Made by a program: the position numbers and the translations under genes | Virus record (IMG/VR): IMGVR_UViG_3300049448_000391 | Source: a virus | Length of the DNA stretch: 60,190 nucleotides | Strand: one strand, 5' to 3' | Notes under the pieces: generated by a model | Told to the model about the DNA's origin: nothing | Databases searched by the model: none | The model's input: only the letters and a program-made list of their open reading frames with translations | In this document: positions 7,281-59,213 of the stretch, piece by piece | Layout of the letters: the number at the start of each line of letters is the position of its first letter | Position numbering within the stretch: the first letter of the stretch is position 1

Positions 7281-7293
7281 ACCAAAGTGGGCC
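7261..7293. repeat. Two exact CCAAAGTGGGCC 12-mers, 21 bp apart
   Basis: 7261-7272 and 7282-7293 read directly; they sit at the start of the 320-bp gap before the packaging genes. Confidence 0.85.
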
Positions 7294-7815: not shown

Positions 7816-7846
7816 CCCGCGCGTTTCACAACGCACGCAGTTCCCC

Positions 7847-7876
7847 CCAACGGGTCGCCGCCGGTCAACGGGCGTG
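7847..7876 (+). promoter_or_regulatory. Conserved upstream element, copy E1 (candidate late promoter/activator site)
   Basis: CCAACGGGTCGCCGCCGGTCAACGGGCGTG, 22 nt before the terS start; near-identical to 13107-13137. Confidence 0.4.
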
Positions 7877-7898
7877 AAGGGGGAAGGAGCGGACGGAC

Positions 7899-8372
7899 AT
7901 GCGTGGTTCACGCACGCCGGAGGCGACGAAGCTCAAGTTTCGTGCGGCCTACATCGAGCACAAGAACGTCAGCGCTGCGGCTCGGGCGGTCGGCATCCCG
8001 ACGAGCACGGCGTTCGACCTGGTCGACGAGGCTGAGGCTGATCCCGCGTTCGTCGAAGCTCGGGAAAAGATCCGTGCCCGAGTAATGCCTCAGCTCGAGG
8101 ACCGCCTCCTCGACATGGCGGCAACGATCCACGAGCGCATCCACGCGCCGGATCCGACGCCGAAGCAGCTCGCCGCGATCGCAGTCGACAGCGGCCTGAA
8201 GAGCTTCAGCTACCAGAATCCGAAGCCGCAGTACTTCAAGGGCTTCGTCGATCTCTACAAGGCCATCGGCGGCGCTCGCAAAGGCGAAGGCGGACCGCTC
8301 GACAACGGCCCCTCGGTCGTCGTGAATCTCACGGTCGGCAAGTCGGAGAAGCCGACGCCCGATGGCGCTTGA
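7899..8372 (+). CDS. terS: Terminase small subunit (putative)
   Basis: GGGGGAAGGAG SD; N-terminal HTH NVSAAARAVGIPTSTAFDLV; directly upstream of and overlapping terL. Confidence 0.55.
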   Translation: MRGSRTPEATKLKFRAAYIEHKNVSAAARAVGIPTSTAFDLVDEAEADPAFVEAREKIRARVMPQLEDRLLDMAATIHERIHAPDPTPKQLAAIAVDSGLKSFSYQNPKPQYFKGFVDLYKAIGGARKGEGGPLDNGPSVVVNLTVGKSEKPTPDGA

Positions 8373-33207: not shown

Positions 33208-34050
33208 ATGGCAAGCGCAGCATTTACCGTTAACGGTGGCAGCTCTCCGCAGACCTGCGCAGCCGGCTCCCTCGTCACGCTCGCGCTCACGAGCACGACC
33301 GGCGTCGGCACCGTCACGTGGTCGATCATCGGGAGCAGCGACTCGTCGAAGGTCGCTCCGACGATCACGCCGACGGGCTCGCCGAACGGCGCGACGGCGA
33401 CGTTCACGATGAACACGCCGGTCGGCTCCGTCGGGCTGACGTGGCTCGTCCGATGCGTCATCAACGGCGGCGTCGATTCCGCCGGCCAGGCCGTTGCCGC
33501 TTACACCGCTACGGCCGTCGTAGGCGTCGTCAACTCGACCGGGATCCTTCCGTTCGCGTTCGGCGAGAGCCTCGAACGGAATGCCGTCACCGGGATCGCT
33601 AACGACCTCAACACGGCGATGGCCTCGAGCGGAGCCGGCACGACGGGACCGGTCGCGACCGTCGCTTCCACATTCTCGACGACGGCCGGGAACGTCGACG
33701 CAACGGTCTACACGATCCCAGCATCGCCGAGCGGCGCGGGTCGCTTCGTGCTCTCGGTGCCGCGCGTGCGACTCAACACGGCGATCGTCGGCACCGGCAA
33801 CGTCACCGTCACCGTCGGCATCGCAGCGGGCGGCACGGAGTACGTGCTCGCCGTCGTGCTCAACAACGCCACTGCGGTCGGCATCGTCGCCGGTCTCGCT
33901 CTGTCGACCTACGGAACGGCGCTGCTGATCGGCAACGGCTACCAGGTCGATCTCGCTGCAGGCGCGACCATCACGGTGCGCTGGGCGACTGCCGGCACCA
34001 TCTCCGCGGGCGCGGGCGAGGTTGCCGTGTTCGGGCAGACGATCCCGTGA
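33208..34050 (+). CDS. Tail fibre-module protein
   Basis: 280 aa, Thr/Ala/Gly-rich beta-like sequence. Confidence 0.5.
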   Translation: MASAAFTVNGGSSPQTCAAGSLVTLALTSTTGVGTVTWSIIGSSDSSKVAPTITPTGSPNGATATFTMNTPVGSVGLTWLVRCVINGGVDSAGQAVAAYTATAVVGVVNSTGILPFAFGESLERNAVTGIANDLNTAMASSGAGTTGPVATVASTFSTTAGNVDATVYTIPASPSGAGRFVLSVPRVRLNTAIVGTGNVTVTVGIAAGGTEYVLAVVLNNATAVGIVAGLALSTYGTALLIGNGYQVDLAAGATITVRWATAGTISAGAGEVAVFGQTIP

Positions 34051-34853
34051 TCATCCACGGCATCCCGAAATGGCAGCCGTCGGACGACCTGCCGGACATC
34101 TGGCTCGACGCGACGAACACGAGCACGGGTTCGCTCAAGGACTCGGGCGGATCGGCGATCACGAACAACGCGACCGTCGGGCACTGGATCAGCCAGGGCG
34201 GTTCCGCGTTCGACCTGGTGCAATGGGGCGCCAACAATCGTCCGACTTGGGTAACCAACGGGATCGTAGGCAAGGCATCGGTTAAATTCGTCTCCGCATC
34301 CTCGCAAATCCTCGCACTCGTCACGCCTGGCGGGATGACGAGCATGACCGGGATTTCGGTCCTGATGGTCTATCAGCGAGCTAGCACGCCAGGCGGTGGC
34401 TCGCTGGCGTTCGGACTGATGACCCCGCACGAATCGGGGAACGCCGACACGACGCTCGTCTATTGCGCCGCAGATGATTTCTCGCTTGGCGGTCGGCGAC
34501 TACAAGCAGACTCGTTTCAAGCCGGCAATTCCGGGTCGATGACGAACGGCGTACCCGGGCTTTTCGCTGGAACGTTGGACTGGTCCAACGCCAAGACGAC
34601 CTTTCTGAGGAACGGGAAAGTCGTCACGCGCTCCGCGAGCTTTCAGACATCAGGAACGACGGCGGCCATCGCACCGCACGCGATCATGGTCGGAGGCTTC
34701 GCCTTCGAGAGCGGGACCGCTACAGGCTCGAATTTCGACGGATTCATTTCAGAGATCCTCGTCTACAAAAACCGTGTTCTGACGGCCGATGAGATGTGCG
34801 TGCGTGCCGCCTATCTCGCGGTGAAGTGGAACCCGAACCCGCCGGTGTTCTGA
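34047..34853 (+). CDS. LamG/concanavalin-A-like lectin domain protein
   Basis: GTG start in GTGA overlap; C-terminal FDGFISEILVYKNRVLTADEM is typical of LamG_3-type domains. Confidence 0.55.
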   Translation: MIIHGIPKWQPSDDLPDIWLDATNTSTGSLKDSGGSAITNNATVGHWISQGGSAFDLVQWGANNRPTWVTNGIVGKASVKFVSASSQILALVTPGGMTSMTGISVLMVYQRASTPGGGSLAFGLMTPHESGNADTTLVYCAADDFSLGGRRLQADSFQAGNSGSMTNGVPGLFAGTLDWSNAKTTFLRNGKVVTRSASFQTSGTTAAIAPHAIMVGGFAFESGTATGSNFDGFISEILVYKNRVLTADEMCVRAAYLAVKWNPNPPVF

Positions 34854-34856
34854 ACT

Positions 34857-35912
34857 ATGCAACACGCACTCAGGATCGGGATCGGCTACTCGGCGGTCGC
34901 TTGCAATGCAGGCAGCGATAACCCGATTGCCGCGCAGATCTACACCGCGAGCGGTGGCGGGACGGTGCCCGCCGGCGCGACCTCGGTCTACTGCTTCGTT
35001 CGACCCGGAGCCGGTGGCGGAGCATCTGGCGGGGGTGGCGGTGGTGGCTTTGGCGGCGCGACGGGCGGAGGCGGAGGCGGTGGCGGTGGCGGCGGCTCCG
35101 GTGCTCCGTGCGTCGGCGAGTGGACCGACTGCCCGATCGCAGTGACCGCCGGGCAATCGATCACCGTAGTCATTGGCGCTGGCGGGCTCGCGGGTGCGAC
35201 GGGCGGATCTGCGGGAGCGGCGGGCGGTGCTGGCGGCGCTGGTAGTGCCGGAGCGGCCGGCGGACTCACGTCGCTAACGATCAACGGCACGCTCGCGCTC
35301 CAAGCCTGTCAGGGCGCTTCGAATCAAGGCGGCACCGGCGGAAACGCTGGCGGCGGCGGCGGCGCTGGACTGGTCGGCGCAGGCGGCGCAGGCGGCACTG
35401 CCGGCGGTGCTCCGGCGACGAAATGGGGCATCAACGCAATCCTCGGACAGGCGGGGATAGTCGGGGGCGCTGGAGGTTTCACGTCGGGAGCCGCTGGCGG
35501 AAATAGCTCAGCGGGAGCCGCCGTAAACGCAACTCGATTCGGTGTGAGCCCAGTGATCAGCGCCATTTCACCAGGCGGACCTGGGGGCTCCGGTGACGGC
35601 ATCTCTCTCGGCGGTGGCGGAGGCGGCGGCCCCGGCGGCAGCGCAGGTCTCGGCGACGAGACCGTCGTGAACGGAGTCGCGGCCGCGAATGCGAACGGTA
35701 GAGGCGGCACCGGCGGCCACGGCGGAGCGTTCACTAACAACTCCGGCGGCCTCGCGGGGAGCGCGGGCGGCGCTGGCCTCGTCGGCCGCGGCGGTGGAGG
35801 CGGAGGCGGCGGCGGCGGTGGCGGAGCCGCGAACCCGACGGGCATGGTCGGACTCATCGGCGGGGTCGGAGGCGCGGGCGACGCAGGCATCCTGATTCTG
35901 ATCTTCACGTGA
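34857..35912 (+). CDS. Glycine-rich domain protein, paralogue 1
   Basis: 351 aa; IAAQIYTASGGGTVPAGAT, poly-Gly runs, GGHGGAFTNN, C-terminal ILILIFT; a paralogue of the next two genes. Confidence 0.75.
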   Translation: MQHALRIGIGYSAVACNAGSDNPIAAQIYTASGGGTVPAGATSVYCFVRPGAGGGASGGGGGGGFGGATGGGGGGGGGGGSGAPCVGEWTDCPIAVTAGQSITVVIGAGGLAGATGGSAGAAGGAGGAGSAGAAGGLTSLTINGTLALQACQGASNQGGTGGNAGGGGGAGLVGAGGAGGTAGGAPATKWGINAILGQAGIVGGAGGFTSGAAGGNSSAGAAVNATRFGVSPVISAISPGGPGGSGDGISLGGGGGGGPGGSAGLGDETVVNGVAAANANGRGGTGGHGGAFTNNSGGLAGSAGGAGLVGRGGGGGGGGGGGGAANPTGMVGLIGGVGGAGDAGILILIFT

Positions 35913-35919
35913 GAGATCA

Positions 35920-36921
35920 ATGACGATCGCAGCTCAAATCTATACGGCGAACGGCGGCGGCACGGTGCCCGTCGGCGCGACGATCTGCATGGCTTACATG
36001 CGCCCGGGCGCAGGCGGAGGAGCTAGCGGGACCGGCGGAGGAGCGGGCAACGGCGGCGCGACAGGCGGTGGCGGTGGTGGCGGCGGAGGTGGTGGCTCTG
36101 GTGCTCCGTGCGTCGGTGAGTGGGCCGCGCCCATCACCGTAGTCGGAGGCCAATCGATCACAGTCGCGATCGGCGCCGGCGGGATCGGCGGAACCCCTGG
36201 AGGCACGGGTGGCACGGGCGGGGCGGGCTCAGGTGGGGCAGGCGGCGTCGGCACCACGGGCGGCGTCGGGGGCGTTTCGTCTCTGACGATCAACTCGATT
36301 CTGGTCGCGCAGGCGGCCCAGGGCGCATCCGTGCAAGGAGCAAACGGCGGAGCCGCCAACGGCTCGGCCGCGGGAGGCGGCACCAACGCGGCGGGCGGCA
36401 CGCTCGGGTCGGCGAGCTCGCAAGGCGCCGTCAAATGGGGCACGGACGCGTTTACCGGACAGGCCGGAACGGCAGGATCTGCCGGCGGAGGAACCGCGGG
36501 ACAAACGGCCTCAAACACGGGCGCGAATCCGGCCCAAAATCCAGTCCGATTCGGCGCGGCACCTGCAATCGCAGCGGGCACTGCCGCCGTTGGTGGGACA
36601 GGAGACGCCGTCTCTCTCGGTGGTGGCGGAGCGGGCGGAGCAGGGGGCAGCACCAACCTCGGCGATGAGACGCTCATCGGTGGGGTGATGTCGTCCACGA
36701 CTGACGGCAAGGCTGGCGTGGGCGGTCACGGGGGCGCCTTCACGAACAACGCGTCTGGCACTGCAGGCGGCAACGGCAACGCGGGCACCAACGGTCGCGG
36801 CGGTGGTGGTGGCGGAGGCGGCGGCGGCGGTGGTGCAGCGAACCCGACCGGGCAGAACGGATTCGCCGGAGGAACGGGCGGCGCTGGTTCAGCGGGTCTA
36901 GTCGTCCTCCTTTTCAAGTGA
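35920..36921 (+). CDS. Glycine-rich domain protein, paralogue 2
   Basis: 333 aa; MTIAAQIYTANGGGTVPVGAT..., same motif order, C-terminal LVVLLFK. Confidence 0.75.
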   Translation: MTIAAQIYTANGGGTVPVGATICMAYMRPGAGGGASGTGGGAGNGGATGGGGGGGGGGGSGAPCVGEWAAPITVVGGQSITVAIGAGGIGGTPGGTGGTGGAGSGGAGGVGTTGGVGGVSSLTINSILVAQAAQGASVQGANGGAANGSAAGGGTNAAGGTLGSASSQGAVKWGTDAFTGQAGTAGSAGGGTAGQTASNTGANPAQNPVRFGAAPAIAAGTAAVGGTGDAVSLGGGGAGGAGGSTNLGDETLIGGVMSSTTDGKAGVGGHGGAFTNNASGTAGGNGNAGTNGRGGGGGGGGGGGGAANPTGQNGFAGGTGGAGSAGLVVLLFK

Positions 36922-36928
36922 TCCAACA

Positions 36929-37906
36929 ATGACGATCGCAGCTCAGATCTACACGGCAAATGGCGGCGGAACGGTGCCCGCTGGCGCGACGATCTGCCAG
37001 ATCTTCATCCGTCCCGGAGCCGGTGGCGGAGCATCTGGCGGCGGAGGCGGCGGTGGCTTCGGCGGCGCGACCCCCGGCGGCGGAGGCGGCGGCGCTGGCG
37101 GAGGTAGCGGAGCTCCGTGCTGCGGAGATTGGACGCCGCCGGTGAGCGTGACTGCGGGCCAATCGATCACGGTCGCGATCGGCGCCGGCGGACTCGCGGG
37201 GACGCCGGGCGGAACTGCAGGAGCCGGCAGTGGAGCAGGCGGCGCTGGCAATCCTGGCGGCGCGGGCGGCATCACGAGCGTGACGATCAACAGCGTGCTC
37301 GTCGCGCAGGCTGGACAGGGCGCGAGCAACCAGGGAGGCACTGGCGGCGGAGCAGGCGGCGCAGGTAATCCTGGCACGAGCGGCACCGGCGGCACCGGCG
37401 GCTCAGCGGGTTCGGCGCCCACCGCGAAATGGGGGCCAGCGGCGATCCTGGGTCAGGCCGGGATCGCGGGCGCCGCCGGAGGTAACTCGGGCGTCGGCGG
37501 TAACACTGCCGCGACAATAGCAGTGCACTCCTCGAGATTTGGCGGCGCCTCTCAGATCGCTATCGGAACGGCAATCATCGGAGGCACCGGAAGCGCGCCA
37601 ATTGCCGGCGGCGGTGCAGGCGGTGGTGGCGGCTCCTCGGGACTCGGCGACGAGACTGCGGTGAACGGCGTCATTTCTGCGAATACCGATGGCAAGGGCG
37701 GCACCGGTGGCCACGGCGGCGCGTTCACCAACAACGCGGGCGGGCTCGTGGGGAACGCAGGAAACAACGGCACCAACGGTCGCGGCGGTGGTGGTGGCGG
37801 AGGCGGCGGCGGCGGTGGTGGCGACGGTACCAGCGGCCAAGTTGGGCTCGCGGGCGCAGCGGGTGGCAACGGAGACAACGGGATCGCGATCCTGGTCTTC
37901 ACTTGA
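36929..37906 (+). CDS. Glycine-rich domain protein, paralogue 3
   Basis: 325 aa; MTIAAQIYTANGGGTVPAGAT..., same motif order, C-terminal IAILVFT. Confidence 0.75.
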   Translation: MTIAAQIYTANGGGTVPAGATICQIFIRPGAGGGASGGGGGGGFGGATPGGGGGGAGGGSGAPCCGDWTPPVSVTAGQSITVAIGAGGLAGTPGGTAGAGSGAGGAGNPGGAGGITSVTINSVLVAQAGQGASNQGGTGGGAGGAGNPGTSGTGGTGGSAGSAPTAKWGPAAILGQAGIAGAAGGNSGVGGNTAATIAVHSSRFGGASQIAIGTAIIGGTGSAPIAGGGAGGGGGSSGLGDETAVNGVISANTDGKGGTGGHGGAFTNNAGGLVGNAGNNGTNGRGGGGGGGGGGGGGDGTSGQVGLAGAAGGNGDNGIAILVFT

Positions 37907-37919: not shown

Positions 37920-38138
37920 GTGGAATTCATCGACTGCACGACGCCGGGAACGCCGCTCACTTGGGCGGTCGTCGAAGACGGCAAGGTTACGAACATGGTG
38001 AGCGCGAGCCAGCGCTTCGTCGACGAGAACCCGGAGTTCACCAAGAGCTACGTTCTCGTGCCTCCCGGCATCGTCGTCGAGAGCGGACACACGTTCGACG
38101 GCAAGACGTTCGCGCCCGGCGCGCAGGAGACGCAGTGA
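37920..38138 (+). CDS. Small hypothetical protein (72 aa)
   Basis: GTG 37920 after GAAGGGAG; VEDGKVTNMV...GHTFDGKTF; resembles the next ORF. Confidence 0.45.
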   Translation: MEFIDCTTPGTPLTWAVVEDGKVTNMVSASQRFVDENPEFTKSYVLVPPGIVVESGHTFDGKTFAPGAQETQ

Positions 38139-38509
38139 ACATCTACGCGCTGGTGAAAGCGGGGGTCGTGAAAAACATCGTTCTCGCGGCCGATCCGGCG
38201 AGCGCGACGCAAGGCGACGCCACGCTGACGGCCGTGCTCGTCGCAGCGGGGAAAGTCGTATCCGGAGGCGACACCTACGACGGCGTCAATTTCATCCTGG
38301 CGCCATTTACGTTCCAGGACCCGGGACCTCCTGATGCTCAGGCGGTGGCGATCCAGCTCGCCTACGCGAACCGCGCATCCATCGCTGCACAGGCCGGAGT
38401 GAAGAGCGTGACGCTCATGAATGCGGCCCGCTCTTTCATACAGGCTTGCGCGGCATCGCTCACGTCCGCGGCCCCCACCGCGGTCACCGCGGGCATCAAC
38501 GCTATCTGA
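38135..38509 (+). CDS. Small hypothetical protein (124 aa)
   Basis: GTG 38135 in GTGA overlap; VKAGVVKNIV...GGDTYDGVNF. Confidence 0.45.
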   Translation: MNIYALVKAGVVKNIVLAADPASATQGDATLTAVLVAAGKVVSGGDTYDGVNFILAPFTFQDPGPPDAQAVAIQLAYANRASIAAQAGVKSVTLMNAARSFIQACAASLTSAAPTAVTAGINAI

Positions 38510-38598: not shown

Positions 38599-39072
38599 AT
38601 GCAACAAGTCACCGCCTTCCTCTTCGGTCACTGGACCGCGATCCTGCTCTACCTCTCGATCGGCACCGCGCTGGTCCGCGGTTTCGACGCACTCGCGCAG
38701 AAGTTCCCGAAGCTCGCTCCAGCCGCTTCGGTCGTCGACGCGTTGTTCCACGACGTCTTCGAGATCCTCGGTGCGCTGGCGTCGATGTTCGGTCTCAGGT
38801 GGCCGCCGAGCTCGGGCGGGACGGCGGCGAAGGTGGCGATCGTCTGTCTGCTCGCCTTCCTCGGCTGCGGCATCCCCGCGAAGACCGTCGTGCGGGATGT
38901 CTGCACGGTCATCGATAGCGGGAATCCGGCGATCGGTGCGCTGTGCCTGACGGCGGAGGAAATCGCGTCGCTGTTCGGCCACGTGCGAGCCGCTCGCGCA
39001 TTCCGCGCGTCCCACCCCGGCGTCTCGCCCGGTCACGCCGTCGACGTCTGCGAAGGGTCGGTGTCGAAGTGA
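38599..39072 (+). CDS. Membrane protein, holin candidate
   Basis: AGGAGA SD; about 3 hydrophobic segments (WTAILLYLSIGTALV, FEILGALASMFGL, VAIVCLLAFLGCGI); first gene of the lysis cluster. Confidence 0.4.
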   Translation: MQQVTAFLFGHWTAILLYLSIGTALVRGFDALAQKFPKLAPAASVVDALFHDVFEILGALASMFGLRWPPSSGGTAAKVAIVCLLAFLGCGIPAKTVVRDVCTVIDSGNPAIGALCLTAEEIASLFGHVRAARAFRASHPGVSPGHAVDVCEGSVSK

Positions 39073-39995
39073 TCGCGCGCGGTCGTGGCTGGCGCCCGAA
39101 CGTCCGCCCCTTCGCGCACACGTTCTCGGCGGTCCATCCGCTCTCGCTCGCCGCCGTCATGGCAGACGGCTCGGACCTCACGCCGTTCGTCGCGCCCGTG
39201 ATGGATCAGGGCCAGACGAGCACGTGCACCGGTCACGCGAGCTCGGACGGCGCCTTCACGTCGTTCGGTAAGGCAGGCGCGCCCCTCGATTGGGTGCCGT
39301 CGCAGGCAGGCATCTACGTGCTCGGCAACGCGACATCGCGCGCCGCGCAGGGGCTCGATCCGGCGACGCACCCGCTCGTCGACCAGGGCGCCTTCCCGGC
39401 GGACGTCATGGACGGGATCGCGAAGTGGGGCCTTCGCCCGATGGGTCCCGAGGTCGAGGGCCGGTTCTCCGATGCCGACGCCGAGACGTGCGTTGCGGAG
39501 CCCACGCTCGACGAGCTCGAGACGGACGCGCTCCACCTCGTCGAGTCGCACGCGATCGCGCGCGGTCCGAACCTCATCGGCGACGTTTGCGCGGCGCTCG
39601 CGGAGTACGCGGTCCCGACGGGCTTCTTTGTCGATACGGCGTTCGAGCAGTGGAACCCGATGAACGGCTTCGTCGGCGCGCCCCTCAATCCGAACGACCC
39701 TAACGGCGGCGGGCACTACGTCGACGTCGTCGGCTTCGTGCGCGCCGGCATCCTCGCTCAGCAGGGCGCGGGCGCTCTGCCGCGGATCATGCGTGCTACC
39801 GCCGAGCAAGCGGCGGCTCTCGCCGTGGCTGCCGGGCGGCTGGCGAGCAACGCGCCGGTCTTCTTCGTCAAGAACTCCTGGGGCGACACCGACTGGGGCC
39901 TCGGCGGGTTCTTCCTCGCGACGAAGGCGTGGCTGCTCGACGCCCAGACGAGCGACTCGAACGCGATCCTGCCCGTCATGAAGGAGGCTGCCTGA
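39069..39995 (+). CDS. Papain-like cysteine peptidase (C1 family-like), endolysin-position
   Basis: GTGA overlap; DQGQTSTCTGHA (Q...C), GGGHYVDVVGF (His), VKNSWGDTDWGLGGFF (N-S-W-G) in canonical order. Confidence 0.7.
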   Translation: MIARGRGWRPNVRPFAHTFSAVHPLSLAAVMADGSDLTPFVAPVMDQGQTSTCTGHASSDGAFTSFGKAGAPLDWVPSQAGIYVLGNATSRAAQGLDPATHPLVDQGAFPADVMDGIAKWGLRPMGPEVEGRFSDADAETCVAEPTLDELETDALHLVESHAIARGPNLIGDVCAALAEYAVPTGFFVDTAFEQWNPMNGFVGAPLNPNDPNGGGHYVDVVGFVRAGILAQQGAGALPRIMRATAEQAAALAVAAGRLASNAPVFFVKNSWGDTDWGLGGFFLATKAWLLDAQTSDSNAILPVMKEAA

Positions 39996-40360
39996 TGTAC
40001 CGAACGATCCTCGCCGTCGCGCTGCTCGTCGCATCGTCTCCGAGCTGCAACCCGCCGCCGGATCCGGTGACGCCGCCCGCTCCGGCGCCCGCTCCCATCC
40101 CGACGATCCCGCCTCCGCTGCCGGTCGTCGATGCGGGGCCGCCTGCGCCTCCTCCCGCGCCCGCGCCCGGAGACGCGTACGACGACGCCTGCGCGGCCAT
40201 GAAGGCCGCTGGGTGCCACGCAGGGGCTGATCCGACGTGCGCGGCAACGATGCGGCACGCCGACCACGACGGGATTACCAAGGTGCCCGTCGCGTGCCTC
40301 GGATCGGCGAAGACGAAGGCGGCCGTGCGCGCATGCGGGTTCACCAAATGCGCGCCGTAG
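39995..40360 (+). CDS. Proline-rich lipoprotein (o-spanin-like candidate)
   Basis: TGATG overlap; MYRTILAVALLVASSPSC then a Pro-rich stretch; 4 further Cys. Confidence 0.5.
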   Translation: MYRTILAVALLVASSPSCNPPPDPVTPPAPAPAPIPTIPPPLPVVDAGPPAPPPAPAPGDAYDDACAAMKAAGCHAGADPTCAATMRHADHDGITKVPVACLGSAKTKAAVRACGFTKCAP

Positions 40361-40647
40361 TCCTGGCCCTCGTCGCCCTGGTCGTGGCCGGCTGCCACTT
40401 CGACTCGCCCATCTTCACGCCGGATCCTCACGACAAGGCCTACCCGTGCCACCGCGCGGACGGCTCGGCGGACCCGAACGCGACGTGGTGCTTCCCGGTC
40501 GACGGATCGCACACGTGCTGCCCTGAGCGGTCCGCGTGCTCGTCGCTCGAGGGGCAACCGATCTGCGCCTACCAGGGTCCAGAGGTCGGTCCCGGCGGCC
40601 TGTTCGAGACACGACGACCGATCGCGCGCACGCCGGAGCACCCGTGA
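40348..40647 (+). CDS. Cys-rich lipoprotein
   Basis: MRAVVLALVALVVAGC|H lipobox; start overlaps the end of the previous gene. Confidence 0.55.
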   Translation: MRAVVLALVALVVAGCHFDSPIFTPDPHDKAYPCHRADGSADPNATWCFPVDGSHTCCPERSACSSLEGQPICAYQGPEVGPGGLFETRRPIARTPEHP

Positions 40648-40763
40648 TCCAGCATCTCTCAGAGCTCGGAGACGTGGTCTTCGAAAGCGCGCTGATCGCC
40701 CTCGCGGGCGCCGCCGGGCTCCTCGTCGTCATGTGGTTGCTGCTTGGGGGGCCGTGGACGTGA
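40644..40763 (+). CDS. Small single-TM peptide (39 aa)
   Basis: GTGA overlap; LIALAGAAGLLVVMWLLLGG. Confidence 0.4.
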   Translation: MIQHLSELGDVVFESALIALAGAAGLLVVMWLLLGGPWT

Positions 40764-40785
40764 GGCCCATCTACCAGGAACCGCA

Positions 40786-41565
40786 ATGACGGACTCGATC
40801 TGGCCCCCGCCATCCGCCGACGCAGCGACGAAGCACGCGCACTACTTCGCGCTCCTCTCTGCAGCCGGAATCGGAACGCGTCTCGATCGCCCACTGCTCC
40901 TTGGGATCCGCGGCCTCGAGCTCGGCGGAACGGAGCCGCACGACACGATCTCGCGGCCCGCCTACGACGACGCCTTCGTCCTCCTCGCCGAGGGCATCGT
41001 TCGCGAGTTCCGCGGCTCGACCCACCCATACCAGCACACCACGCGCGCAACCGTCGACGTCGACCACGACGGGACGCCCGACGTCGGCACAATTCGGCCG
41101 GGCCGCTACGTCATGCAACGGCTACAGACCGCGCCGTTTCCGAAGCTTTGGATCAAGGGCAGCGCCACGGATCCGCGCGTCCCGACATGGCGGGACACGA
41201 ACCACGACGGCACGATCACCGACGCGGAGCGCGATGCCTCGGAGGAACGTCAACGCGGCGAGCAGTCAGCGCCCGACGTCGGCGACTTCGCGACGGAGGT
41301 CCTCTTGCACCCCGGTTTCGACTGCGCCGGTCCGAGCGGAAAAGCGTTCAGCTCGATCGGGTGCCAGACCGCGCACCTTTCCGACGTGGCAGCCGTCGCG
41401 ACCTTCGCCGAGCTCGACTACCTGCTGCTCGATGCGCGGACGCTCCTCGACGCTGCCGCTTCGCCGTTCACGGACGAGCAGCGGCGCGAGATCGAGGGAT
41501 CGGTCGCGTTGACGACGGAAGAGAGCGCGGAAGACGCGCTCCGCGGCGCGGAGAAACCCGCGTGA
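40786..41565 (+). CDS. Putative cell-wall enzyme with L,D-transpeptidase-fold-like motif and EF-hand-like loops
   Basis: LLHPGFDCAGPSGKAFSSIGCQT fits H-x14-S-x-G-C (YkuD/Tlde1-like); DTNHDGTITDAE fits an EF-hand loop; function is inferred. Confidence 0.4.
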   Translation: MTDSIWPPPSADAATKHAHYFALLSAAGIGTRLDRPLLLGIRGLELGGTEPHDTISRPAYDDAFVLLAEGIVREFRGSTHPYQHTTRATVDVDHDGTPDVGTIRPGRYVMQRLQTAPFPKLWIKGSATDPRVPTWRDTNHDGTITDAERDASEERQRGEQSAPDVGDFATEVLLHPGFDCAGPSGKAFSSIGCQTAHLSDVAAVATFAELDYLLLDARTLLDAAASPFTDEQRREIEGSVALTTEESAEDALRGAEKPA

Positions 41566-46047: not shown

Positions 46048-46831
46048 GCGGCCTCCTGCGCGATGAGTTCCCGGATCACCCATCCGACGACCTCAGCGCA
46101 CTGCGGAACAACGGCGTTTCCCAGACAGTGGAGTCGGGAATCGACCAGTCCGTCGAGAAGCCCATCAACGCCTCGACGAATTGCGGGTTCAGGTCCACCG
46201 TCGGCGAGCCACTCGGCCCAGGCGGAAATGTCGTCGGGCCCAGGTGGGAACCGGTGGGGATCCGTAGCACCGCGTCCGAGAGCGACGTCCCCGGGTGCAT
46301 CACGTCCGTCTTCGTCGTGACTCGGCCCGAGCGCTTCGAGTCCGTCACGACCGGCGTGGGCCACGATGAAGATTCGTCCACGGCGGTGCGGGGCGCCGAC
46401 ATCGCTCGCTCGCAACGGGATCGGAAGGCTTTCATAGCCTCGCTCTGCCAGGTCTCCTCGGACGGCATCGACCCAGCGATTCGGTCCGCTGGCGACGTTC
46501 TCGATGACGAGCCAGTCGGGGGCGAGCGCCGAAGCGATTCGAGCGAACTCAAAGTAGAGGCCGCTTCGAGCACCAGTGAGGCCAGCTCCCTTGCCGGACG
46601 AGGAGATGTCCTGACAGGGGAAGCCGCCGCAGAGGAGATCAATGGGGGGGGCTGGTGTCGCCGGCAGATGTCGCGGACATCGTCGAACCTCCTCGTGGTG
46701 GGCCAATGCCGCGCGAGCACGCGGCGACAGAACTCGTCTTGCTCGACCTGCCAAAGCACCGGACCGAGCCCGGCGCGTTCGAGGCCGAGCTCCAGCCCGC
46801 CGATGCCGGAGAAGAGGGAACCGATCTTCAT
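46044..46831 (-). pseudogene. dcm: DNA (cytosine-5)-methyltransferase with a disrupted reading frame (frameshift at a C8/G8 tract; possibly more)
   Basis: ORF 46076..46831 holds motif I ([11 protein letters not shown]); ORF 46044..46754 holds [23 protein letters not shown] and LGNAVVPQ. The switch coincides with G8 at 46644-46651. Confidence 0.7.
46644..46651. repeat. G8 (C8 on the coding strand) homopolymer at the methyltransferase frameshift point
   Basis: Counted directly; one extra C would fuse ...RRHQPPP to [12 protein letters not shown] in frame. Confidence 0.9.
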
Positions 46832-47976
46832 TGCGCCGCCGCGTCGTCGGACGCCTCGGTCTCGAACGCCTCGAGCGATGAAAGCGTCGCGTCGATCGTG
46901 GGCCAGCGGGCGAGGAAGAAGACGTTCGCCTCCTCCGTCGCGAACTCCGGCGGCTTCACCTGGCGGAGGCGCGCCGCGTAGTCTCTCAGGCGCTCCCCGT
47001 CGGGCTTCAGGGCTTCGAGCCTGGCGGCGTGGGCGGCCTTCCTCTCTTCCTCGGCGATCCGGCGCTGCTCCGCCTCGACGCGTTCTCGCTCGAGCCGCTC
47101 CTTGGCCTCCTGCTCCGCCTTGATCTTCGCCTGCCGCTCGAACTCCTCGCGCTCGACCTTCTCCCGAGCGGCGTCGAGCTCGCGGCGCTGGGCGTCGAGG
47201 CGCTCCTGTTCGGCGCGCTGCCCCGCGGCGATGCGGTCGCGTTCGACCTGGAGGGACCTCTCGGCGAGCTCGCGCTCGTGCAGGGCGTCCGCGATCCGCT
47301 TCCGGTCCTCCTCCTCAGCAAGACGGCGATCGGCTTCGAGCTTGGCGCGCTCTTCGGCGATCTTCGCCTGCTCCGCGCGGGCGCGGGCTTCCTCGTCGGC
47401 GCGCGCCTTTGCGGTCTGAGCCTCGAGCTCGCGACGCAAGGATTCGAGCCGCTCAGCCTCGATCGCCTGGGCCTTCCGCTCATCGGCGAGACGGGCCTCC
47501 TCGGCGTCGCGCTCGGCCTTGAGGCGGGCGGCTTCCTGCTCGCGGAGCTCCCGGAGCCGAGCTTCCTCGGCCTCGCGCGCCTCCCGGATCGTGCGCTCGA
47601 TCTCGGCTCGCTCGGCCTCTTCCTTCTCGCGCTTCAGCCGCTCCTTCTCTTCGTCGATCGCCTTGATCAGCGCGTCGAGGCGCTCCTCGGTCGGCTCGAT
47701 GGCGGCCGTCAGGTCCTTCGCGGCGGCGTCGACCGCTTTTCCGTAGATCAAGGCTCCGCGCTTCAGATCCTTCCGGCGGGCCTCGATGCTCGTGCGCGTC
47801 GTGCGGAGGTGAGCGCGGGCTTTCGTGACCTCCTTGTATTTCTCGGGGGTCTCCGCGGACGTGAGCGCGTCGTACTTCGAGGCCATCGCGCGGGCCTCTT
47901 CGATGCTGAACTCGTATTTCACGAGCGGGACGATCGTTGCGCCCGCGGCTTCCACTATTTCGGTTTCGTCGGACAT
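46828..47976 (-). CDS. Long coiled-coil protein (Glu/Arg/Ala-rich)
   Basis: AGGAGA SD; 382 aa with a central segment of about 230 aa of E/R/A/K heptads; adjacent to the recombination genes. Confidence 0.65.
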
Positions 47977-47986
47977 GGGGGTCTCC

Positions 47987-48448
47987 TCAGTAGTTCTCGG
48001 GATCCAAGTCGTCGTCTGCCGGCGGCGCGGCCTTGCGCTGCCCGTTACCGGCCCGCGCGTGAACGCGTGGCTTCGCGCTCGGTGGTGCGGCGTTCACTTG
48101 CTCCTCGCCGCGGACGCCGCTCCACACCGCGTCCGGGTACCACTCGCGCCACGCGATCCACTTCGCGAGGTTCTCCGCCATCTTCGAATCCCTCGCGGCC
48201 CACTCGTTCCCCTCGCGCGCGGCGGAATCGAGCGAGCGGTTCCGGAACCAGCGGAGGCTCTCCAGGGATGTCTCGGACGCCCACTGGTAGCCGGCCTTGA
48301 TGTGGAGCTGCGTGTCGTACTTCCCCCGACGAGGCTCCTCCGGCTTCGCGCGCGCGAGCAGGGACGCGGACGTCTCCTGGTCGAGCGAGTCGAAGAGCAC
48401 CCGCAACGCGATGCCGGGAGGGAGCGAAAAGAACTCGTCGGGGGTCAT
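47987..48448 (-). CDS. Hypothetical protein with acidic C-terminal tip
   Basis: 153 aa; ends PPADDDLDPENY. Confidence 0.55.
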   Translation of the reverse strand: MTPDEFFSLPPGIALRVLFDSLDQETSASLLARAKPEEPRRGKYDTQLHIKAGYQWASETSLESLRWFRNRSLDSAAREGNEWAARDSKMAENLAKWIAWREWYPDAVWSGVRGEEQVNAAPPSAKPRVHARAGNGQRKAAPPADDDLDPENY

Positions 48449-48454
48449 CGGGGA

Positions 48455-49294
48455 TCAGTTCTTGTCTTCGTTCTTCTTCTCGACGCCCTCGGCCTCGATG
48501 AGGCCTTCGCGCTCCATGGCCTCCGCGATGACGGGATCCATGGTCGCGAGAAGCGACGTCCCGATCTCCGGTGCCTCGTCGAGTGCGGTCGCGAGCGCGA
48601 TCCGTTCCGTCGACTTCGGCATCCAGCGGAAGTGGGCGCGGACCGCCGTCTTCAGGCACATGGCCGCGTAGTCCGTCACCCACGGTCCCGACTTCGCCGC
48701 CGGGGAGCGGTCGCGGCGGGTGTTGATCTCGGCGATCGAGAGGACCGTGAACTGCTTCCGGCCGTCCGGTGTCACCGACACCGCGTAGGCGTGCGTGATC
48801 GGCTTCGCCTCCCGATCCGGCGCGTCGCTCTGCACGTGGTCGACGCTCGGATCCGTGCCGAGCTTCACGCGGAAGTCGTCGCCCTGGCGGACGAGGTAGC
48901 CGTACACGGTGACGCCCGCGCGCCCCGCGAGCTCGAGCATCCCCTGATAGCCGAGCTGCAGGGTGCACTCCTTCTTGCCCGTCTTGTTGTTCTGCCTGGG
49001 GATCAGGTAGGCGAGCCCGAGCGGCGTGTTCGGTTCGAGCCCGAGCTGCGCGCACGAGAGAACGCACCCGACGAAGGACGCCTGCGTGCACTCCGCGAGT
49101 TCCGGGTTGATCCGGATCGCAGTGAGAACGATTCGCGCCATGCGGTCGCCCGTCATGTGCTTCGGGAGCGCGAGCGCGATCTGCGGCGTCATCTTCTGGA
49201 TGATCTCGGCCATCTTGTCGCCGGGCTTCTTCTCCTCGGTGCGGGGAACGATCTGCCCGGTCTTGTCGGTCTGGGGGGTGGACATGGGATTCAC
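48455..49294 (-). CDS. recT: RecT-family single-strand annealing protein
   Basis: ASFVGCVLSCAQLGLEPNTPLGLAYLIP, LGYQGMLELA, KTAVRAHFRWMP blocks are typical of RecT; GTG 49294 in GTGA overlap (or ATG 49285). Confidence 0.85.
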   Translation of the reverse strand: MNPMSTPQTDKTGQIVPRTEEKKPGDKMAEIIQKMTPQIALALPKHMTGDRMARIVLTAIRINPELAECTQASFVGCVLSCAQLGLEPNTPLGLAYLIPRQNNKTGKKECTLQLGYQGMLELAGRAGVTVYGYLVRQGDDFRVKLGTDPSVDHVQSDAPDREAKPITHAYAVSVTPDGRKQFTVLSIAEINTRRDRSPAAKSGPWVTDYAAMCLKTAVRAHFRWMPKSTERIALATALDEAPEIGTSLLATMDPVIAEAMEREGLIEAEGVEKKNEDKN

Positions 49295-50247
49295 TTTCCT
49301 TTGGGTTGATGCAGTCGCAGCACTCGGAAGCTGTTCGCCGCCACGGTGAACTCCCTCCGGTGTTGCAGCTTGTTCGAGAACGAGCGCCCGTCGGTCATCA
49401 CGCCGACTTCGGCGGCTCCGATCCCGGCGCGCACCTCGTTCTCCAGGACGTCGATCCGCTCGGCGACGCGCTTCCGGTCCGCCTTCAGGCGCTCGAGCTC
49501 GTCCGCTACGTCGCGCATCGTGCCCGGGAGCACGACGACGCCGTGCCCTTCCGGGTAGAGCGCCGTGAGCGCGCGCCGTGTCTCCTCGCTACCATCCGGA
49601 GCGGGCACGTCGCGGGCCTGGACGCGCTGCCAGAAGCGTTCGCCGTGGTAGACGATCTTTCGGATCGTCACCTCGTCGCGCGGCACGTCCGCCCACACCA
49701 TGCGGTTCCCGCCGAGGAGCGCGGCGATCGTCGCCCGCTGCGCGCCCGTTACGAGCATCTGCTGTTGAACCTGGAGGAAGTAGTGCGGCGGCGGACCGTC
49801 GACCCACTCGTCCCCCATGAAGCTCGAAACGTTCTTCACCTCGAGCGGCCACGCCTCGACGTCGTTCGCCGCGTCCCAGGTCTTCCCGTCCAGCGTGCAC
49901 ATCGCCCACGGATGCGCCGTCGAGCGGAGGAGGAGCCCGTCCTTGCGCGTCCGTCTTCCAGTGCGCTCCTGGTACGCCTCGATGACGCGATCCTCGAGCT
50001 TGAGTCCCCAATAGATCGCCTCGACGTCGGACAGGTCGCGCTCGTACGCGCCGGTCTTCTTCGCATAGAGGGCGAGCGCGCCGCCCCATGCCCTCGGGGC
50101 TTCGCCGAGTGCCATGGCGATCTCCGAGGCGCCGATCCCCGAGTGACGATGGCGGAGCCAGCTCTCGCGATCGTCCGTCGTGCACACGAGCTCGCAGTGC
50201 GGGCTCTCTGCTTCGATCACACGGCCGGCTTGCTGCGCTGCGCTCAT
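49291..50247 (-). CDS. YqaJ/lambda-Exo-type recombination exonuclease
   Basis: ATG 50247 in ATGA overlap; GIGASEIAMALG, PLEVKN (E.K) and HYFLQVQQQM blocks; paired with recT. Confidence 0.8.
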   Translation of the reverse strand: MSAAQQAGRVIEAESPHCELVCTTDDRESWLRHRHSGIGASEIAMALGEAPRAWGGALALYAKKTGAYERDLSDVEAIYWGLKLEDRVIEAYQERTGRRTRKDGLLLRSTAHPWAMCTLDGKTWDAANDVEAWPLEVKNVSSFMGDEWVDGPPPHYFLQVQQQMLVTGAQRATIAALLGGNRMVWADVPRDEVTIRKIVYHGERFWQRVQARDVPAPDGSEETRRALTALYPEGHGVVVLPGTMRDVADELERLKADRKRVAERIDVLENEVRAGIGAAEVGVMTDGRSFSNKLQHRREFTVAANSFRVLRLHQPKGK

Positions 50248-50747
50248 GATGCTTTTTGCTCCCGTGGGAAGTTGAGGACCGCGAATGCTCCGAAGAAGTG
50301 CATCGCCGCGGCGTCCCACACGCGCGCCGCGGCCTCCTCGTCGAGGAAATACCCGAGCCCCATCTTCTTTCCGGCGGACTGGATCTGAGCCTTCCAGCGC
50401 GACGTCGGCGCGTACCAGGACACGCCGATGAAGCGGCTCGTCTTACGGCCACCGCGCACACGGTTCTGCGCATTCTGTGCGGCCGTGGCGAAGCGTAGGT
50501 TCTCGCGGCGGTTGTCGAGGCCGTCACGATTCTTGTGATCGACGCGCTGCCCGCGAGGCGCCGCGAGGATGGCTCGGTGCATCGAGAGCGTCGCGCGGCG
50601 GCCGTCGGGGCGCTTGATGTTCCGGATCGCGTACCAGGCGAGACCCGGCGGCATTATCACCGCGTGCCAGCGGTGCTTTGCCAGCTCCGGATAGTCCTCG
50701 TCGTCGACGAGCGCGACCTTCCCCTGCGTGAGAACGATCTCCCTCAC
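50244..50747 (-). CDS. HNH endonuclease with AP2 DNA-binding domain (homing-endonuclease-like)
   Basis: VDHKNRDGLDNRRENLR...AQN (HNH) followed by SRFIGVSWYAPTSRWKAQI...GYF...AARVWD (AP2). Confidence 0.8.
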   Translation of the reverse strand: MREIVLTQGKVALVDDEDYPELAKHRWHAVIMPPGLAWYAIRNIKRPDGRRATLSMHRAILAAPRGQRVDHKNRDGLDNRRENLRFATAAQNAQNRVRGGRKTSRFIGVSWYAPTSRWKAQIQSAGKKMGLGYFLDEEAAARVWDAAAMHFFGAFAVLNFPREQKAS

Positions 50748-56727: not shown

Positions 56728-56728
56728 G

Positions 56729-56812
56729 TGCTGACGGTCGGGGTCGAACCGACACGCCCTTGCGGGCACCAGCTCCTGAAGCTGGCGCGTCTGCCAATTC
56801 CGCCACGTCAGC
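56729..56812 (-). tRNA. tRNA-Leu(CAG): tRNA-Leu (anticodon CAG), full length, no encoded CCA
   Basis: Folded by hand: acceptor GCTGACG/CGTCAGC, 3-bp D-stem, anticodon stem CCAGC/GCTGG with loop TTCAGGA, long variable arm GCCC-GCAA-GGGC, T-arm GTCGG-TTCGACC-CCGAC, discriminator A. Confidence 0.9.
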
Positions 56813-57112
56813 GTTTCTGGGAGAGCAGCCCCTCGGATTCCCGGGAGACCACGCTTTCGATCGGTGTTTCCTCTCAATCCGTCAAGAACCTGAATCTAAT
56901 GGGTTTTTCGGAATCGTTGAGGAATCTGCCGACGAAGTAGTGCGAGCGCATCTGAGAATCTCGGAAGCCCTCCCGGTTACTGGGAGAGTCTCCCGGGAGA
57001 GTCGACGAGGGTACCACGCGGTCGCGAAGGCCCGCCTCTCCCTCGCCGCCGCCCGCGTATCGGCTGCCCTCGCCTGGTCGGCCCTCGGCCTGCCCGCGCT
57101 CCGGAGGGTCGC
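56813..57112. other. Candidate attP arm region
   Basis: Non-coding, less GC-rich; CTGGGAGAG at 56817 and 56980; TCCCGGGAGA at 56839 and 56991; GAATC(T/G) at 56892, 56911, 56922, 56956. Confidence 0.4.
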
Positions 57113-57589
57113 ATGATACCCCTCCGCCGCGGCTACCCGCACGACGAGTCCGCCCGTCGCGCCCGGATGATCAACCTCGCCGGCAAGCAGGTCGGTCGCT
57201 GCGTCGTCGTGCGCCTCTCCGAGAACAAGCGCCTCGGCGCCCGCTGGATCCTCCGCTGCCAGTGCGGCAACGAGTTCGAGGTTCTCGGGTTCAACGTCCG
57301 CGACGCGGGACCGAACTACGCGTGTCCGACGTGCCGCCCTCGCGGGCGCCGTCCGGTCCGTAGCCCCATCCACTGCACCGAGTGCGGCTCTGGTGGCCAC
57401 AACCGCGCGACGTGCCCGCGACGAACGATGCCCAGCAAGTCGCCGCTCGCGTGCTTCGGGTGCGCGGGCCTTCCGCATCGGCGGCCGAAGGATGGGTGCG
57501 TTTGCGGCGGCCGCTACGCCCCCGAGGCGCCCGTCACGATCGACGACGTCATGGCCATGCCGGCGAAGGCGCCGAGGGAGTGCGCGTGA
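57113..57589 (+). CDS. Cys-rich protein with a CCHC zinc-knuckle-like motif
   Basis: CQCGNEF...CPTC and CTECGSGGHNRATC (C-x2-C-x4-H-x4-C). Confidence 0.55.
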   Translation: MIPLRRGYPHDESARRARMINLAGKQVGRCVVVRLSENKRLGARWILRCQCGNEFEVLGFNVRDAGPNYACPTCRPRGRRPVRSPIHCTECGSGGHNRATCPRRTMPSKSPLACFGCAGLPHRRPKDGCVCGGRYAPEAPVTIDDVMAMPAKAPRECA

Positions 57590-58170
57590 AACTCGCCGCC
57601 GCGATCCTCCTCGTGATCTCGCACTGGGATCACGCCTGCTATCCGGTCGACACCCCGCCGCCCGAGACCGTCGGCGAGTTCCAGATCCGGGAGGAGACCA
57701 TCGCGGAGGCCGACGCGGAGATCGCCGAGGAGGTCGCGCAGCCGTGGGGCGTCACGATCGTCGCCGCCGGCGTCGCGGTCGTCTTCCACTCGGAGAGCCG
57801 GTTCGATTGGTACATTCACGCGGGCGTCCCGCACCCTGATCCGTCGCACCACGAGGATCACGGGCTCGCGCGGTGCATGGGCTCGCTCCATGCGAACAAG
57901 CTCCTCTCGCACGACGAATGGCTCGGGCTCGCCGGTACGAGCCTCGAAGCGACGACGCGCTGTGCGCTCCGTACGGCGCTCGCCCTTCGTTCGTCGCACT
58001 GGGTCTGCGCGCACGACCTCCCGCCGAGCGAGTACGCGATGGCGCTCACGCTCGAGCACTACGCCCGCGGGCACTGCGCGGAGCCCGGCACGGAGTCGTG
58101 GAAGCGCGCGGCGCGGTGGATGCGGACCGCGAACCGAATCGGCGAGCTCGTAAAGGGGAGGCATAGCTGA
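57586..58170 (+). CDS. Hypothetical protein, weak lytic-transglycosylase-like motif
   Basis: GTGA overlap; hydrophobic N-terminus; VFHSESRFDW (E-S) block. Confidence 0.35.
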   Translation: MKLAAAILLVISHWDHACYPVDTPPPETVGEFQIREETIAEADAEIAEEVAQPWGVTIVAAGVAVVFHSESRFDWYIHAGVPHPDPSHHEDHGLARCMGSLHANKLLSHDEWLGLAGTSLEATTRCALRTALALRSSHWVCAHDLPPSEYAMALTLEHYARGHCAEPGTESWKRAARWMRTANRIGELVKGRHS

Positions 58171-59213
58171 TGGGCGCAACGCCGATCGAATGGACCGACT
58201 TTTCGATCAACCCGCTCCGCGCGCGTCTCCGCGACCGCGTCGGGCACTACTGCGAGAAGGTCTCGCCGGGCTGCAAGAATTGTTACAGCTCGCGCCTGCA
58301 GCCCCGTTTCGGGCTCCCGCAGTTCCAGGAGCAGCGCGGCAACGCGGACGTGAAGAGCTTCCTCGACGAGACGAAGCTCCACGAGGTCCTCCGCCGCCGG
58401 AAGCCCACCAAGTTCTTTTGGTGTGACATGACCGACATGTTCGGGGAGTGGGTGCCGGACGAGGCGATCGCGATGTGCTTCGCGGCGATGGCCGCGACGA
58501 CCTGGCACACGCACCAGGTCCTCACGAAGCGCGCCGACCGCCTTCGCGAGATCGTACCGAAGCTCTACGCGAACGACGGCGCGATGCTCATCGAGGCCGC
58601 GGAGCGACTCGCGCCGCAGATCGACGCCTGTCACATCGGCGAGGACGATTGGAAGTTCCCGCTCCCGAACGTGTGGCTCGGCGTCTCCGCGGAGGACCAG
58701 GCGCGAGCGGACGAGCGGATCCCTGATCTCCTGGCGACGCCGGCTGCTGTGCGTTTCGTGTCGGCGGAGCCGCTCCTAGGACGGGTGAACCTCGAGCGCG
58801 TCCTCTGGACGCAATGCGAGCGCTGCGGTGGTTCCTGCTCCGTCCCCGTCCCAGGAGGCGGCCGCCCGTGTCCCGCATGCCTCGAGCACCAGGGTTTCCA
58901 GCGCGGCGGTCTCGACTGGGTGATTGTTGGCGGGGAGAGCGGACAGCAGGCGCGTCAGTGCGATATCGCGTGGATCCGTTCGCTCGTCGAGCAGTGTCGT
59001 TCCGCTGGCGTCGCCGCGTTCGTGAAGCAGCTTGGGGCGAAACCGGTCCCATTGAAGCCGATGCGGCTGCCCTCGTGGAACGCGTCCACCGGCAAGCCGC
59101 ACCGAGGGTGGATCGACGACACCCATCACGCGTTGTCCGACTCGAAGGGCGGCGAGATCACGGAGTGGCCCGAGGACCTCCGTGTTCGCGAGTTTCCGGA
59201 GGCGCACCCGTGA
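58170..59213 (+). CDS. Phage Gp37/Gp68 family (DUF5131-like) protein
   Basis: N-terminal IEWTDFSINPLR...VSPGCKNCYS and the later FVSAEPLLG and VGGESG blocks are typical of this family. Confidence 0.75.
   Translation: MGATPIEWTDFSINPLRARLRDRVGHYCEKVSPGCKNCYSSRLQPRFGLPQFQEQRGNADVKSFLDETKLHEVLRRRKPTKFFWCDMTDMFGEWVPDEAIAMCFAAMAATTWHTHQVLTKRADRLREIVPKLYANDGAMLIEAAERLAPQIDACHIGEDDWKFPLPNVWLGVSAEDQARADERIPDLLATPAAVRFVSAEPLLGRVNLERVLWTQCERCGGSCSVPVPGGGRPCPACLEHQGFQRGGLDWVIVGGESGQQARQCDIAWIRSLVEQCRSAGVAAFVKQLGAKPVPLKPMRLPSWNASTGKPHRGWIDDTHHALSDSKGGEITEWPEDLRVREFPEAHP

Follow-up and report, generated by a model that had tools for sequence, protein, structure and literature searches.

The polyglycine-II bundle is a rare protein architecture: phages touch their hosts with such domains, and the ALK and LTK receptors bind cytokines through theirs. 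Here we describe three tandem genes in a viral DNA window of 60,190 nucleotides (nt) (IMG/VR record IMGVR_UViG_3300049448_000391; the window is the whole stretch that was analysed, and is essentially one phage contig), whose glycine-rich products appear to be free-standing members of this structural class. Bundles of polyproline-II (PPII) or polyglycine-II helices have been described in gp33 and in part of gp29 of phage Bxb1, in the fibre of phage Pam3, and in gp38 of phage S16 (PMC13243192), and a role in touching the surface of the host is presumed for polyglycine-rich domains (PMC13252515, PMC13243795). Our favoured reading of the triplet, which we hold with moderate confidence, is that its products are virion-borne host-surface binding modules, wherein stand-alone brush domains of a contractile-tail phage would present three binding surfaces. 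The three genes are as follows (aa, amino acids; HMM, hidden Markov model).

34857-35912, + strand: paralogue 1, 351 aa; brush module plus a 23-aa N-terminal extension (MQHALRIGIGYSAVACNAGSDNP); matches the module HMM with E 4e-79.
35920-36921, + strand: paralogue 2, 333 aa; module alone, beginning at the first beta-strand (MTIAAQIYTA).
36929-37906, + strand: paralogue 3, 325 aa; module alone; the copy used for modelling.

These genes, separated by spacers of 7 nt, correspond exactly to plus-strand open reading frames (ORFs) at the coordinates, and with the lengths of 351, 333 and 325 aa, given in an earlier sequence-only reading of the window. Their paralogy is directly supported by alignment. 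Protein identity to copy 1 is 62% for copy 2 and 69% for copy 3 (end-to-end alignment; mean column identity 77%), DNA identity among the three copies is 62-68%, and direct-repeat families with a period of ~985-1009 nt run across the triplet. All three proteins carry IAAQIYTA(S/N)GGGTVP.GAT, RPGAGGGASG, GGGSGAPC.G(E/D)W, QSITV.IGAGG and GGHGGAFTNN, followed by a second run of 12-13 Gly. The same reading had proposed a shared order for a longer list of motifs, and every motif is indeed present and in order, but two of its patterns are too strict for some copies: L(T/S).(L/V)TIN matches copy 1 only (VSSLTIN in copy 2, ITSVTIN in copy 3), and GDET..NGV misses copy 2, which has GDETLIGGV. The short hydrophobic C-termini that it listed (ILILIFT, LVVLLFK, IAILVFT) are found in the three copies.

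Glycine makes up 36-37% of the residues in each copy and is encoded mainly by GGC, mixed with GGT and GGA. The glycine runs are imperfect triplet repeats with mixed codons, which rules out slippage-prone perfect triplet repeats; the mixed codon usage within these runs may reflect selection against replication slippage. Repeats of the collagen-like or PE-PGRS type are ruled out as well, given that the longest G-X-Y run is only 2-4 repeats, with glycines lying in runs of 4-13, and that the predicted model is compact. The proline-rich ORFs on the antisense strand were rejected as genes, being the trivial complement of glycine codons. The N-terminus of copy 1 (34857-34925, MQHALRIGIGYSAVAC...) weakly resembles a lipoprotein signal with a lipobox-like AVAC, which is unexpected for a virion protein; the 23-aa extension could alternatively be a docking peptide.

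The fold of the module was predicted with AlphaFold2 for copy 3 from a 54-sequence alignment. The model has a predicted local distance difference test (pLDDT) score of 94.7 and a predicted template-modelling (pTM) score of 0.91, and contains no helices, ~12% strand and ~88% of residues in neither class, wherein seven short strands span residues 4-8, 12-15, 22-28, 79-83, 116-120, 123-128 and 319-324. When the PDB was searched with this model using Foldseek, two matches were significant, with E-values of 9.4e-7 and 8.1e-6 and probability 1.0, and both are chains of gp33, the 'tail wing brush' of Bxb1. Among the 50 PDB matches listed, the next form an unbroken block of TNF (tumour necrosis factor)-like/glycine-rich structures of LTK and ALK (E 0.011-0.3, probability 0.13-0.72), after which comes noise. 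In BFVD, a collection of predicted viral structures, 174 entries matched with E <= 1e-3. First among them is the tail fibre of Achromobacter phage Mano, many others are named 'Glycine-rich domain-containing protein' or tail fibre, and the set includes glycine-rich-domain proteins of mycobacteriophages and a Gordonia phage as well as the C-terminal parts of giant-virus 'collagen-like' proteins. The links to ALK/LTK and to phage tail-fibre glycine-rich domains that the sequence-only reading had given as background thus hold at the level of the fold. One 652-aa BFVD match to the brush model carries the name 'Concanavalin A-like lectin/glucanases superfamily'.

The spacing of the glycines points in the same direction. 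Pairs of family-conserved glycines at a lag of three residues number 43, versus an expectation of 25.7 +/- 3.1 (z = 5.5), with an excess at lags 6 and 9 too; this period of three fits the three-residue turn of polyglycine-II helices. The conserved polar residues of the family are R28, D241, E242 and R285 (copy-3 numbering). The structural searches directly support the fold class, and the three proteins, as modelled, would therefore be placed in the phage polyglycine-rich 'brush' (TG-like) domain class, wherein they appear to form a distinct, larger sequence subfamily.

Comparison with the described members of this class reveals both shared and distinguishing features. Like each triplet protein, Bxb1 gp33 (PDB 9d93, chains Qa/Qb) is a stand-alone small protein, nearly all of it a polyglycine-rich bundle on a small beta core, has a layout of N-terminal strand, VP.G, G-run, GxGGxGG and C-terminal hydrophobic strand, and is encoded at the end of the tail module. 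In contrast to the triplet, gp33 is 267 aa in length, with ~35 aa preceding the module, and occurs as a single copy in a siphovirus that infects a mycolata host. It is an accessory decoration on 'wings' and binds only gp30 and gp31, via which it docks (PMC12646305); no equivalents of these two proteins were identified in the window.

The gp24 tip of Pam3 combines a TNF-like sandwich with a glycine-rich domain and resembles the ALK ectodomain, and its chaperone gp25 is encoded downstream (PMC9608196). In gp24, this glycine-rich domain is 39% Gly and has conserved GGGGxGG motifs and variable distal ends (PMC9608196). Pam3 (PDB 7YFW, cited in PMC13243192) resembles the present phage in having a contractile tail and a small gene directly downstream. 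However, gp24 is a homotrimer made from one gene and has an N-terminal alpha-helical docking domain. A baseplate-docking domain of this alpha-helical type is absent from the triplet, as the copy 3 model is free of helices and copies 2 and 3 begin at a strand.

The gp38 protein of S16 and T-even phages (6F45; Dunne et al. 2018, via PMC9608196 and PMC12032242) is a stand-alone adhesin whose gene ends the fibre module, as the triplet does, and the variable loops of its polyglycine-II sandwich read host outer-membrane proteins, which makes it the functional paradigm for such domains. It differs from the triplet in having an N-terminal attachment domain, a beta-helix, and 10 glycine-rich motifs arranged in three layers. 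The S16-type combination of a gp37-attachment domain, a beta-helix and a three-layer polyglycine-II sandwich was not found in the triplet, which is without an N-terminal domain and has no sequence similarity to gp38. The TG/GRD part of ALK/LTK (7nx1, 7lrz, 7mzy, 7lir) resembles the triplet proteins, as modelled, in its size of ~300 aa, its small beta-sandwich and its long polyglycine-II helices, but its biological setting is a different one, in that it belongs to a metazoan receptor that binds ALKAL1/2 (titles of PDB 7nx0 and 7nwz), with template-modelling (TM) scores of 0.16-0.21 to the model and no detectable sequence similarity. Finally, Gly_rich_2-type proteins have an overall motif layout similar to that of the triplet, and many of the BFVD matches are so annotated.

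We assessed the age of the triplication from pairwise synonymous (dS) and nonsynonymous (dN) divergence between copies, calculated by the Nei-Gojobori method. Among the three copies, dS is 1.0-1.5, which is near saturation, dN is 0.27-0.33, and dN/dS is ~0.22-0.26. Thus, the triplication is old, and purifying selection maintains each of the three copies. Moreover, any pair of copies uses the identical codon at only 41-53% of the 99 invariant glycine columns. The fact that so few of these columns keep the same codon rules out recent gene conversion and, together with the dS values, bears out the proposal of the sequence-only reading that the locus arose through an old triplication and is not an assembly artefact. 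Divergence is concentrated in the segments between conserved glycine blocks, wherein alignment columns ~111-135, 161-190, 206-260, 271-285 and 296-345 are the least conserved between paralogues. That the copies are kept separately by selection and differ mainly in these inter-glycine segments suggests that there are probably three binding surfaces.

An exhaustive HMMER search with a profile of the three paralogues recovered 56 cluster representatives among 1.84 billion proteins. In ~50 of these 56 the module forms the extreme C-terminal ~310 aa of a protein of 356-1532 aa, and the non-glycine motifs are conserved across the 56 members. Among the N-terminal parts, a few have matches to Phage_T7_tail, pectate-lyase-like or Kelch domains, and a T4 gp10-like baseplate-attachment segment (E 6.5e-4) is seen as well. 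The ten clusters that were looked up are unnamed or 'hypothetical protein', metagenomic, and mostly singletons. All nine gene contexts retrieved are those of phages, most of them among recognizable head, tail or lysis genes. A phage-structural context for the family is therefore directly supported. The sequence-only reading had named homologues lying mainly outside tail modules as an outcome that would refute its interpretation, and this is not what was found.

Conventional searches hardly reach this family. None of Pfam, PHROGs and NCBIfam has a match for the three proteins, and neither megablast nor tblastn found a match for the triplet among GenBank phages. A word-indexed protein search with the triplet gave just three weak matches, probably swamped by poly-Gly words. 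In viral contigs, alignments of the three paralogues and of 20 module sequences gave pattern matches, none of which was confirmed by tblastn, and the back-translated GHGGAF(T/S)NN motif found nothing there. The one metagenome match to the same motif (locus L007, which is not glycine-rich) was due to chance. Masking of low-complexity sequence, or an excess of poly-Gly words, is the probable cause of these failed searches. When proteins encoded upstream in the window were compared with the module-fused N-terminal parts of homologues (a Rosetta-stone test), no resemblance was found.

Module HMM searches revealed a single full-length module per locus in L001, L004, L005, L008, L010, L014 and L015. 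The only other tandem case among the loci retrieved is a metagenomic contig (L009, 789-2959) with two copies of 363 and 359 aa that are 55% identical, each with its own N-terminus of ~50 aa. Two adjacent minor tail genes with polyglycine domains are also known from mycobacteriophage Mysterious (PMC13252515). Together, these cases suggest that tandem paralogy is recurrent yet uncommon. Two loci deserve separate mention. In L004, a contig of 11.75 kb, a 379-aa member (6951-8090) is encoded beside Rep_1, PG_binding_1 and Peptidase_M23 cell-wall hydrolase genes; this may be a small non-tailed phage or plasmid-like element, which would be an atypical home for the module. In L001, the best homologue is 721 aa in length, and a 310-aa glycine-rich protein encoded upstream (3955-4887) matches profile positions 38-193 (E 4e-7); in this locus, the fibre gene is flanked by the terminase gene and the portal gene of a Mu-like head module.

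Directly downstream of the triplet are two small genes.

37920-38138, + strand: p72, 72 aa; GTG start after a GGGAG Shine-Dalgarno-like site; phrog_14370, E 1e-4.
38135-38509, + strand: p124, 124 aa; phrog_14370, E 6e-7.

The p72 protein and the N-terminal half of p124 are paralogues of each other (38% identity over ~50 residues, E 3e-8), and both match phrog_14370, a family of unknown function. A small partner gene recurs in at least one unrelated phage, as is directly supported by the similarity of p124 to the product of the gene directly downstream of the module in locus L008 (3330-3557; 35% over 48 residues, E 2e-4). Two genes downstream of the module in L001 (7257-7790 and 7787-8161) are weakly related, and the N-terminal motif of p124 recurs, as a weak match (E 0.014), in the gene that follows the module there. 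In Pam3 gp25, a beta N-domain (~55 aa) is followed by a helical C-domain, and the predicted outline of p124 appears similar, with a beta-rich N-terminal half and two C-terminal helices in an AlphaFold2 model that is unreliable (pLDDT 44.7). Neither p124 nor p72 has a sequence match to any solved chaperone. Both p72 and p124 are candidate fibre chaperones or adaptors, which would probably fold or assemble the brush proteins much as gp25 does for the Pam3 fibre.

The triplet closes a structural operon whose main landmarks, given by gene start, lie upstream.

8362, + strand: large terminase.
13897, + strand: major head protein.
18149, + strand: sheath.
21067, + strand: tape measure.
23151, + strand: hub.
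27697, + strand: baseplate J.
34047-34853, + strand: 268-aa protein; phrog_10356 'virion structural protein' (E 3e-11) is its sole match.

The order is thus a contractile-tail operon, several unannotatable genes, the gene at 34047, and then the triplet, in agreement with the earlier placement of the three genes at the tail module's distal end. Neither a promoter-like site nor a convincing terminator was found within the structural block, including the triplet. The product of the 34047 gene may serve the brush proteins as an attachment platform. For the 'LamG-like' label previously given to the 34047 gene there is no match in Pfam, NCBIfam or PDB sequences, and homologues of its product carry no Pfam annotation; for the 'Ig-like' label of the genes before it, neither the libraries nor the annotations of homologues gave confirmation. 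The sole GenBank phage match of the 34047 product sits among unannotated genes. The 34047 gene and paralogue 1 share a reading frame, with TGA ACT preceding the ATG (34851-34859). Readthrough of that TGA would yield a fusion of ~620 aa between the virion protein and the brush, although a shared frame could arise by chance in 1 of 3 cases; the 652-aa lectin-named BFVD match mentioned above may represent a similar fusion.

Immediately beyond the two small genes lies a putative lysis region (38599-41565), recognized by inspection of the letters and translations. One ORF, of 157 aa, is hydrophobic and holin-like, another, of 278 aa, has a weak peptidase match (phrog_16701, E 0.0025), and two further ORFs have lipobox-like N-termini, namely ...LLVASSPSC... 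at ~39995 (Pro-rich) and ...LVVAGC... in 40237-40647. Two such spanin-type-looking lipoprotein ORFs would point to a host that is Gram-negative. In the window's other arm (46828-50319 and 56728-59213) lie minus-strand genes for RecT and a YqaJ-like exonuclease, a gene for a DUF5131 protein, and one tRNA-Leu(CAG). Neither the viral nor the genome contig collections yielded a close relative of the baseplate J protein, and megablast found no match among GenBank phages for a stretch of 12 kb over the tail-fibre end. This phage lineage appears to be unsampled.

The explanation that we favour can be put in mechanistic terms. Each protein would consist of a small beta-sheet core from which a large polyglycine-II helix bundle extends. 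The conserved glycines and a few polar residues (those at positions 28, 241, 242 and 285) would build a rigid scaffold, and the variable inter-glycine segments would make up the outer face that meets the host envelope. The proteins would be expressed late and would sit on the outside of the baseplate or fibre apparatus, in a phage whose host is probably Gram-negative. Three copies would then provide three different binding surfaces for multivalent or alternative adhesion. Incorporation into the virion, a binding function, distinct specificities among the copies and a chaperone role for the small genes are what we infer by analogy with S16/PP01 gp38, Pam3 gp24 and Bxb1 gp33. The interpretation offered in the sequence-only reading, of alternative or co-assembling receptor-binding tips or an adhesin set that widens host range, is supported in part, namely in the fold-level link and in the phage-structural setting of the homologues.

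Several observations weigh against this explanation. Essentially every homologue has residues ahead of the module, at least ~35 and usually hundreds, whereas copies 2 and 3 are without any N-terminal extension and that of copy 1 is only 23 residues long. Foldseek TM-scores are low (0.16-0.44, and 0.23-0.35 for gp33), with high root-mean-square deviation and poor superposition, so that the support for the fold comes from E-values and from the identity of the proteins retrieved, not from superposition. A profile-profile comparison with gp33 by hhalign gave a probability of 31% (E 5e-4) over 45 columns, and profile searches of PDB sequences recovered no ALK, LTK, gp33 or gp38. Likewise, S16 gp38 (6F45) and the Pam3 fibre are absent among the 50 PDB matches listed. 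The Pfam model PF21722 (Gly_rich_2) does not match the three proteins at E <= 1 and reaches just 1 of 54 family members, with an E of 0.0024 that falls below threshold; because this HMM misses it, the ~310-aa subfamily lies outside current Pfam coverage. Support for the chaperone idea is of the motif-level and pairwise kind, and, as noted, the p124 model is unreliable. Lastly, the brush gene region of Bxb1 is dispensable for plaque formation (PMC12646305). The fact that gp33 is accessory and its gene region dispensable makes an accessory adhesion role at least as likely for the triplet as that of a primary receptor-binding tip.

The number and spacing of the genes invite another interpretation, wherein the three proteins assemble 1:1:1 into a heteromeric pseudo-trimeric tip, copy 1 anchors it via its 23-aa extension, and p72 and p124 chaperone the assembly. 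There are exactly three copies, nearly equal in size and with conserved core motifs, their 7-nt spacers suggest coupled and equimolar translation, and copy 1 is the only one with an N-terminal extension. Moreover, the gp24 tip of Pam3 is trimeric and is clasped by a chaperone that is itself a trimer (PMC9608196), and three gp33 chains are present in PDB entry 9d93. However, the glycine-rich parts of the Pam3 tip are only in loose contact between subunits (PMC9608196), S16 gp38 is described as monomeric (PMC12032242), most homologues are single-copy, and each of the two copies in L009 has an N-terminus of its own. We consider such a tip unlikely. To the stricter version, in which the three paralogues are obligate subunits of a single heteromeric polyglycine-II brush, served by two duplicated chaperones and anchored by copy 1, we give little credence; if true, it would be the first heteromeric polyglycine-II receptor-binding device, and it would come from a ~310-aa family outside the domain databases. 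It is also conceivable that the proteins form a non-specific, dispensable sticky brush that raises the rate of encounter with lipid- or polysaccharide-rich surfaces, with copies that are largely redundant. Brush fingers have been proposed to touch lipid-rich envelopes (PMC13243795, PMC13252515), and the wings that gp33 decorates are accessory structures: the related phage Hami1 lacks genes 30-35, and deletion of gp30 is viable with a modest defect (PMC12646305). Purifying selection on three copies whose synonymous divergence is saturated nevertheless argues against simple redundancy, and divergence between the conserved glycine blocks is what would be expected of distinct binding surfaces, as with the loops of S16 and PP01 gp38 that give protein-receptor specificity (PMC12032242, PMC12892980). 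A non-specific brush of this kind thus seems quite improbable to us.

An origin outside the virion would take one of two forms: the proteins could be exported or envelope proteins, acting in superinfection exclusion or envelope remodelling, or the region could be non-coding, low-complexity DNA built of glycine codons. The weak lipobox-like SAVAC of copy 1, the absence of an anchor in copies 2 and 3, the position of the genes just before the putative lysis region, and a G+C content at third codon positions that at 0.70-0.71 is lower than the 0.77-0.86 of the two upstream genes speak for such an origin. Yet copies 2 and 3 have no signal peptide, and homologous modules are fused to fibre-like N-termini in phage structural modules. 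The low dN/dS, the non-glycine motifs shared across the whole family and the confident, compact model also speak against it, and the antisense ORFs are no more than a by-product of the glycine codons. We regard this possibility as highly improbable.

Phage tail tips and the human ALK receptor already offer examples of the fold of these proteins, and the triplet is an unusual version of it, not a categorically new one. What the locus adds is a rare subfamily of ~310 aa missed by Pfam, PHROGs and NCBIfam, a domain that stands free, three copies under selection, and a recurrent small partner gene. As composition filters and word indexes hide the family and tools of the BLAST type find nothing, censuses of receptor-binding proteins probably under-count it. 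If the copies differ in specificity, the triplet would illustrate, in compact and natural form, how host range is diversified via duplication of a minimal adhesin, and its members would be swappable scaffolds for the engineering of phage tropism.

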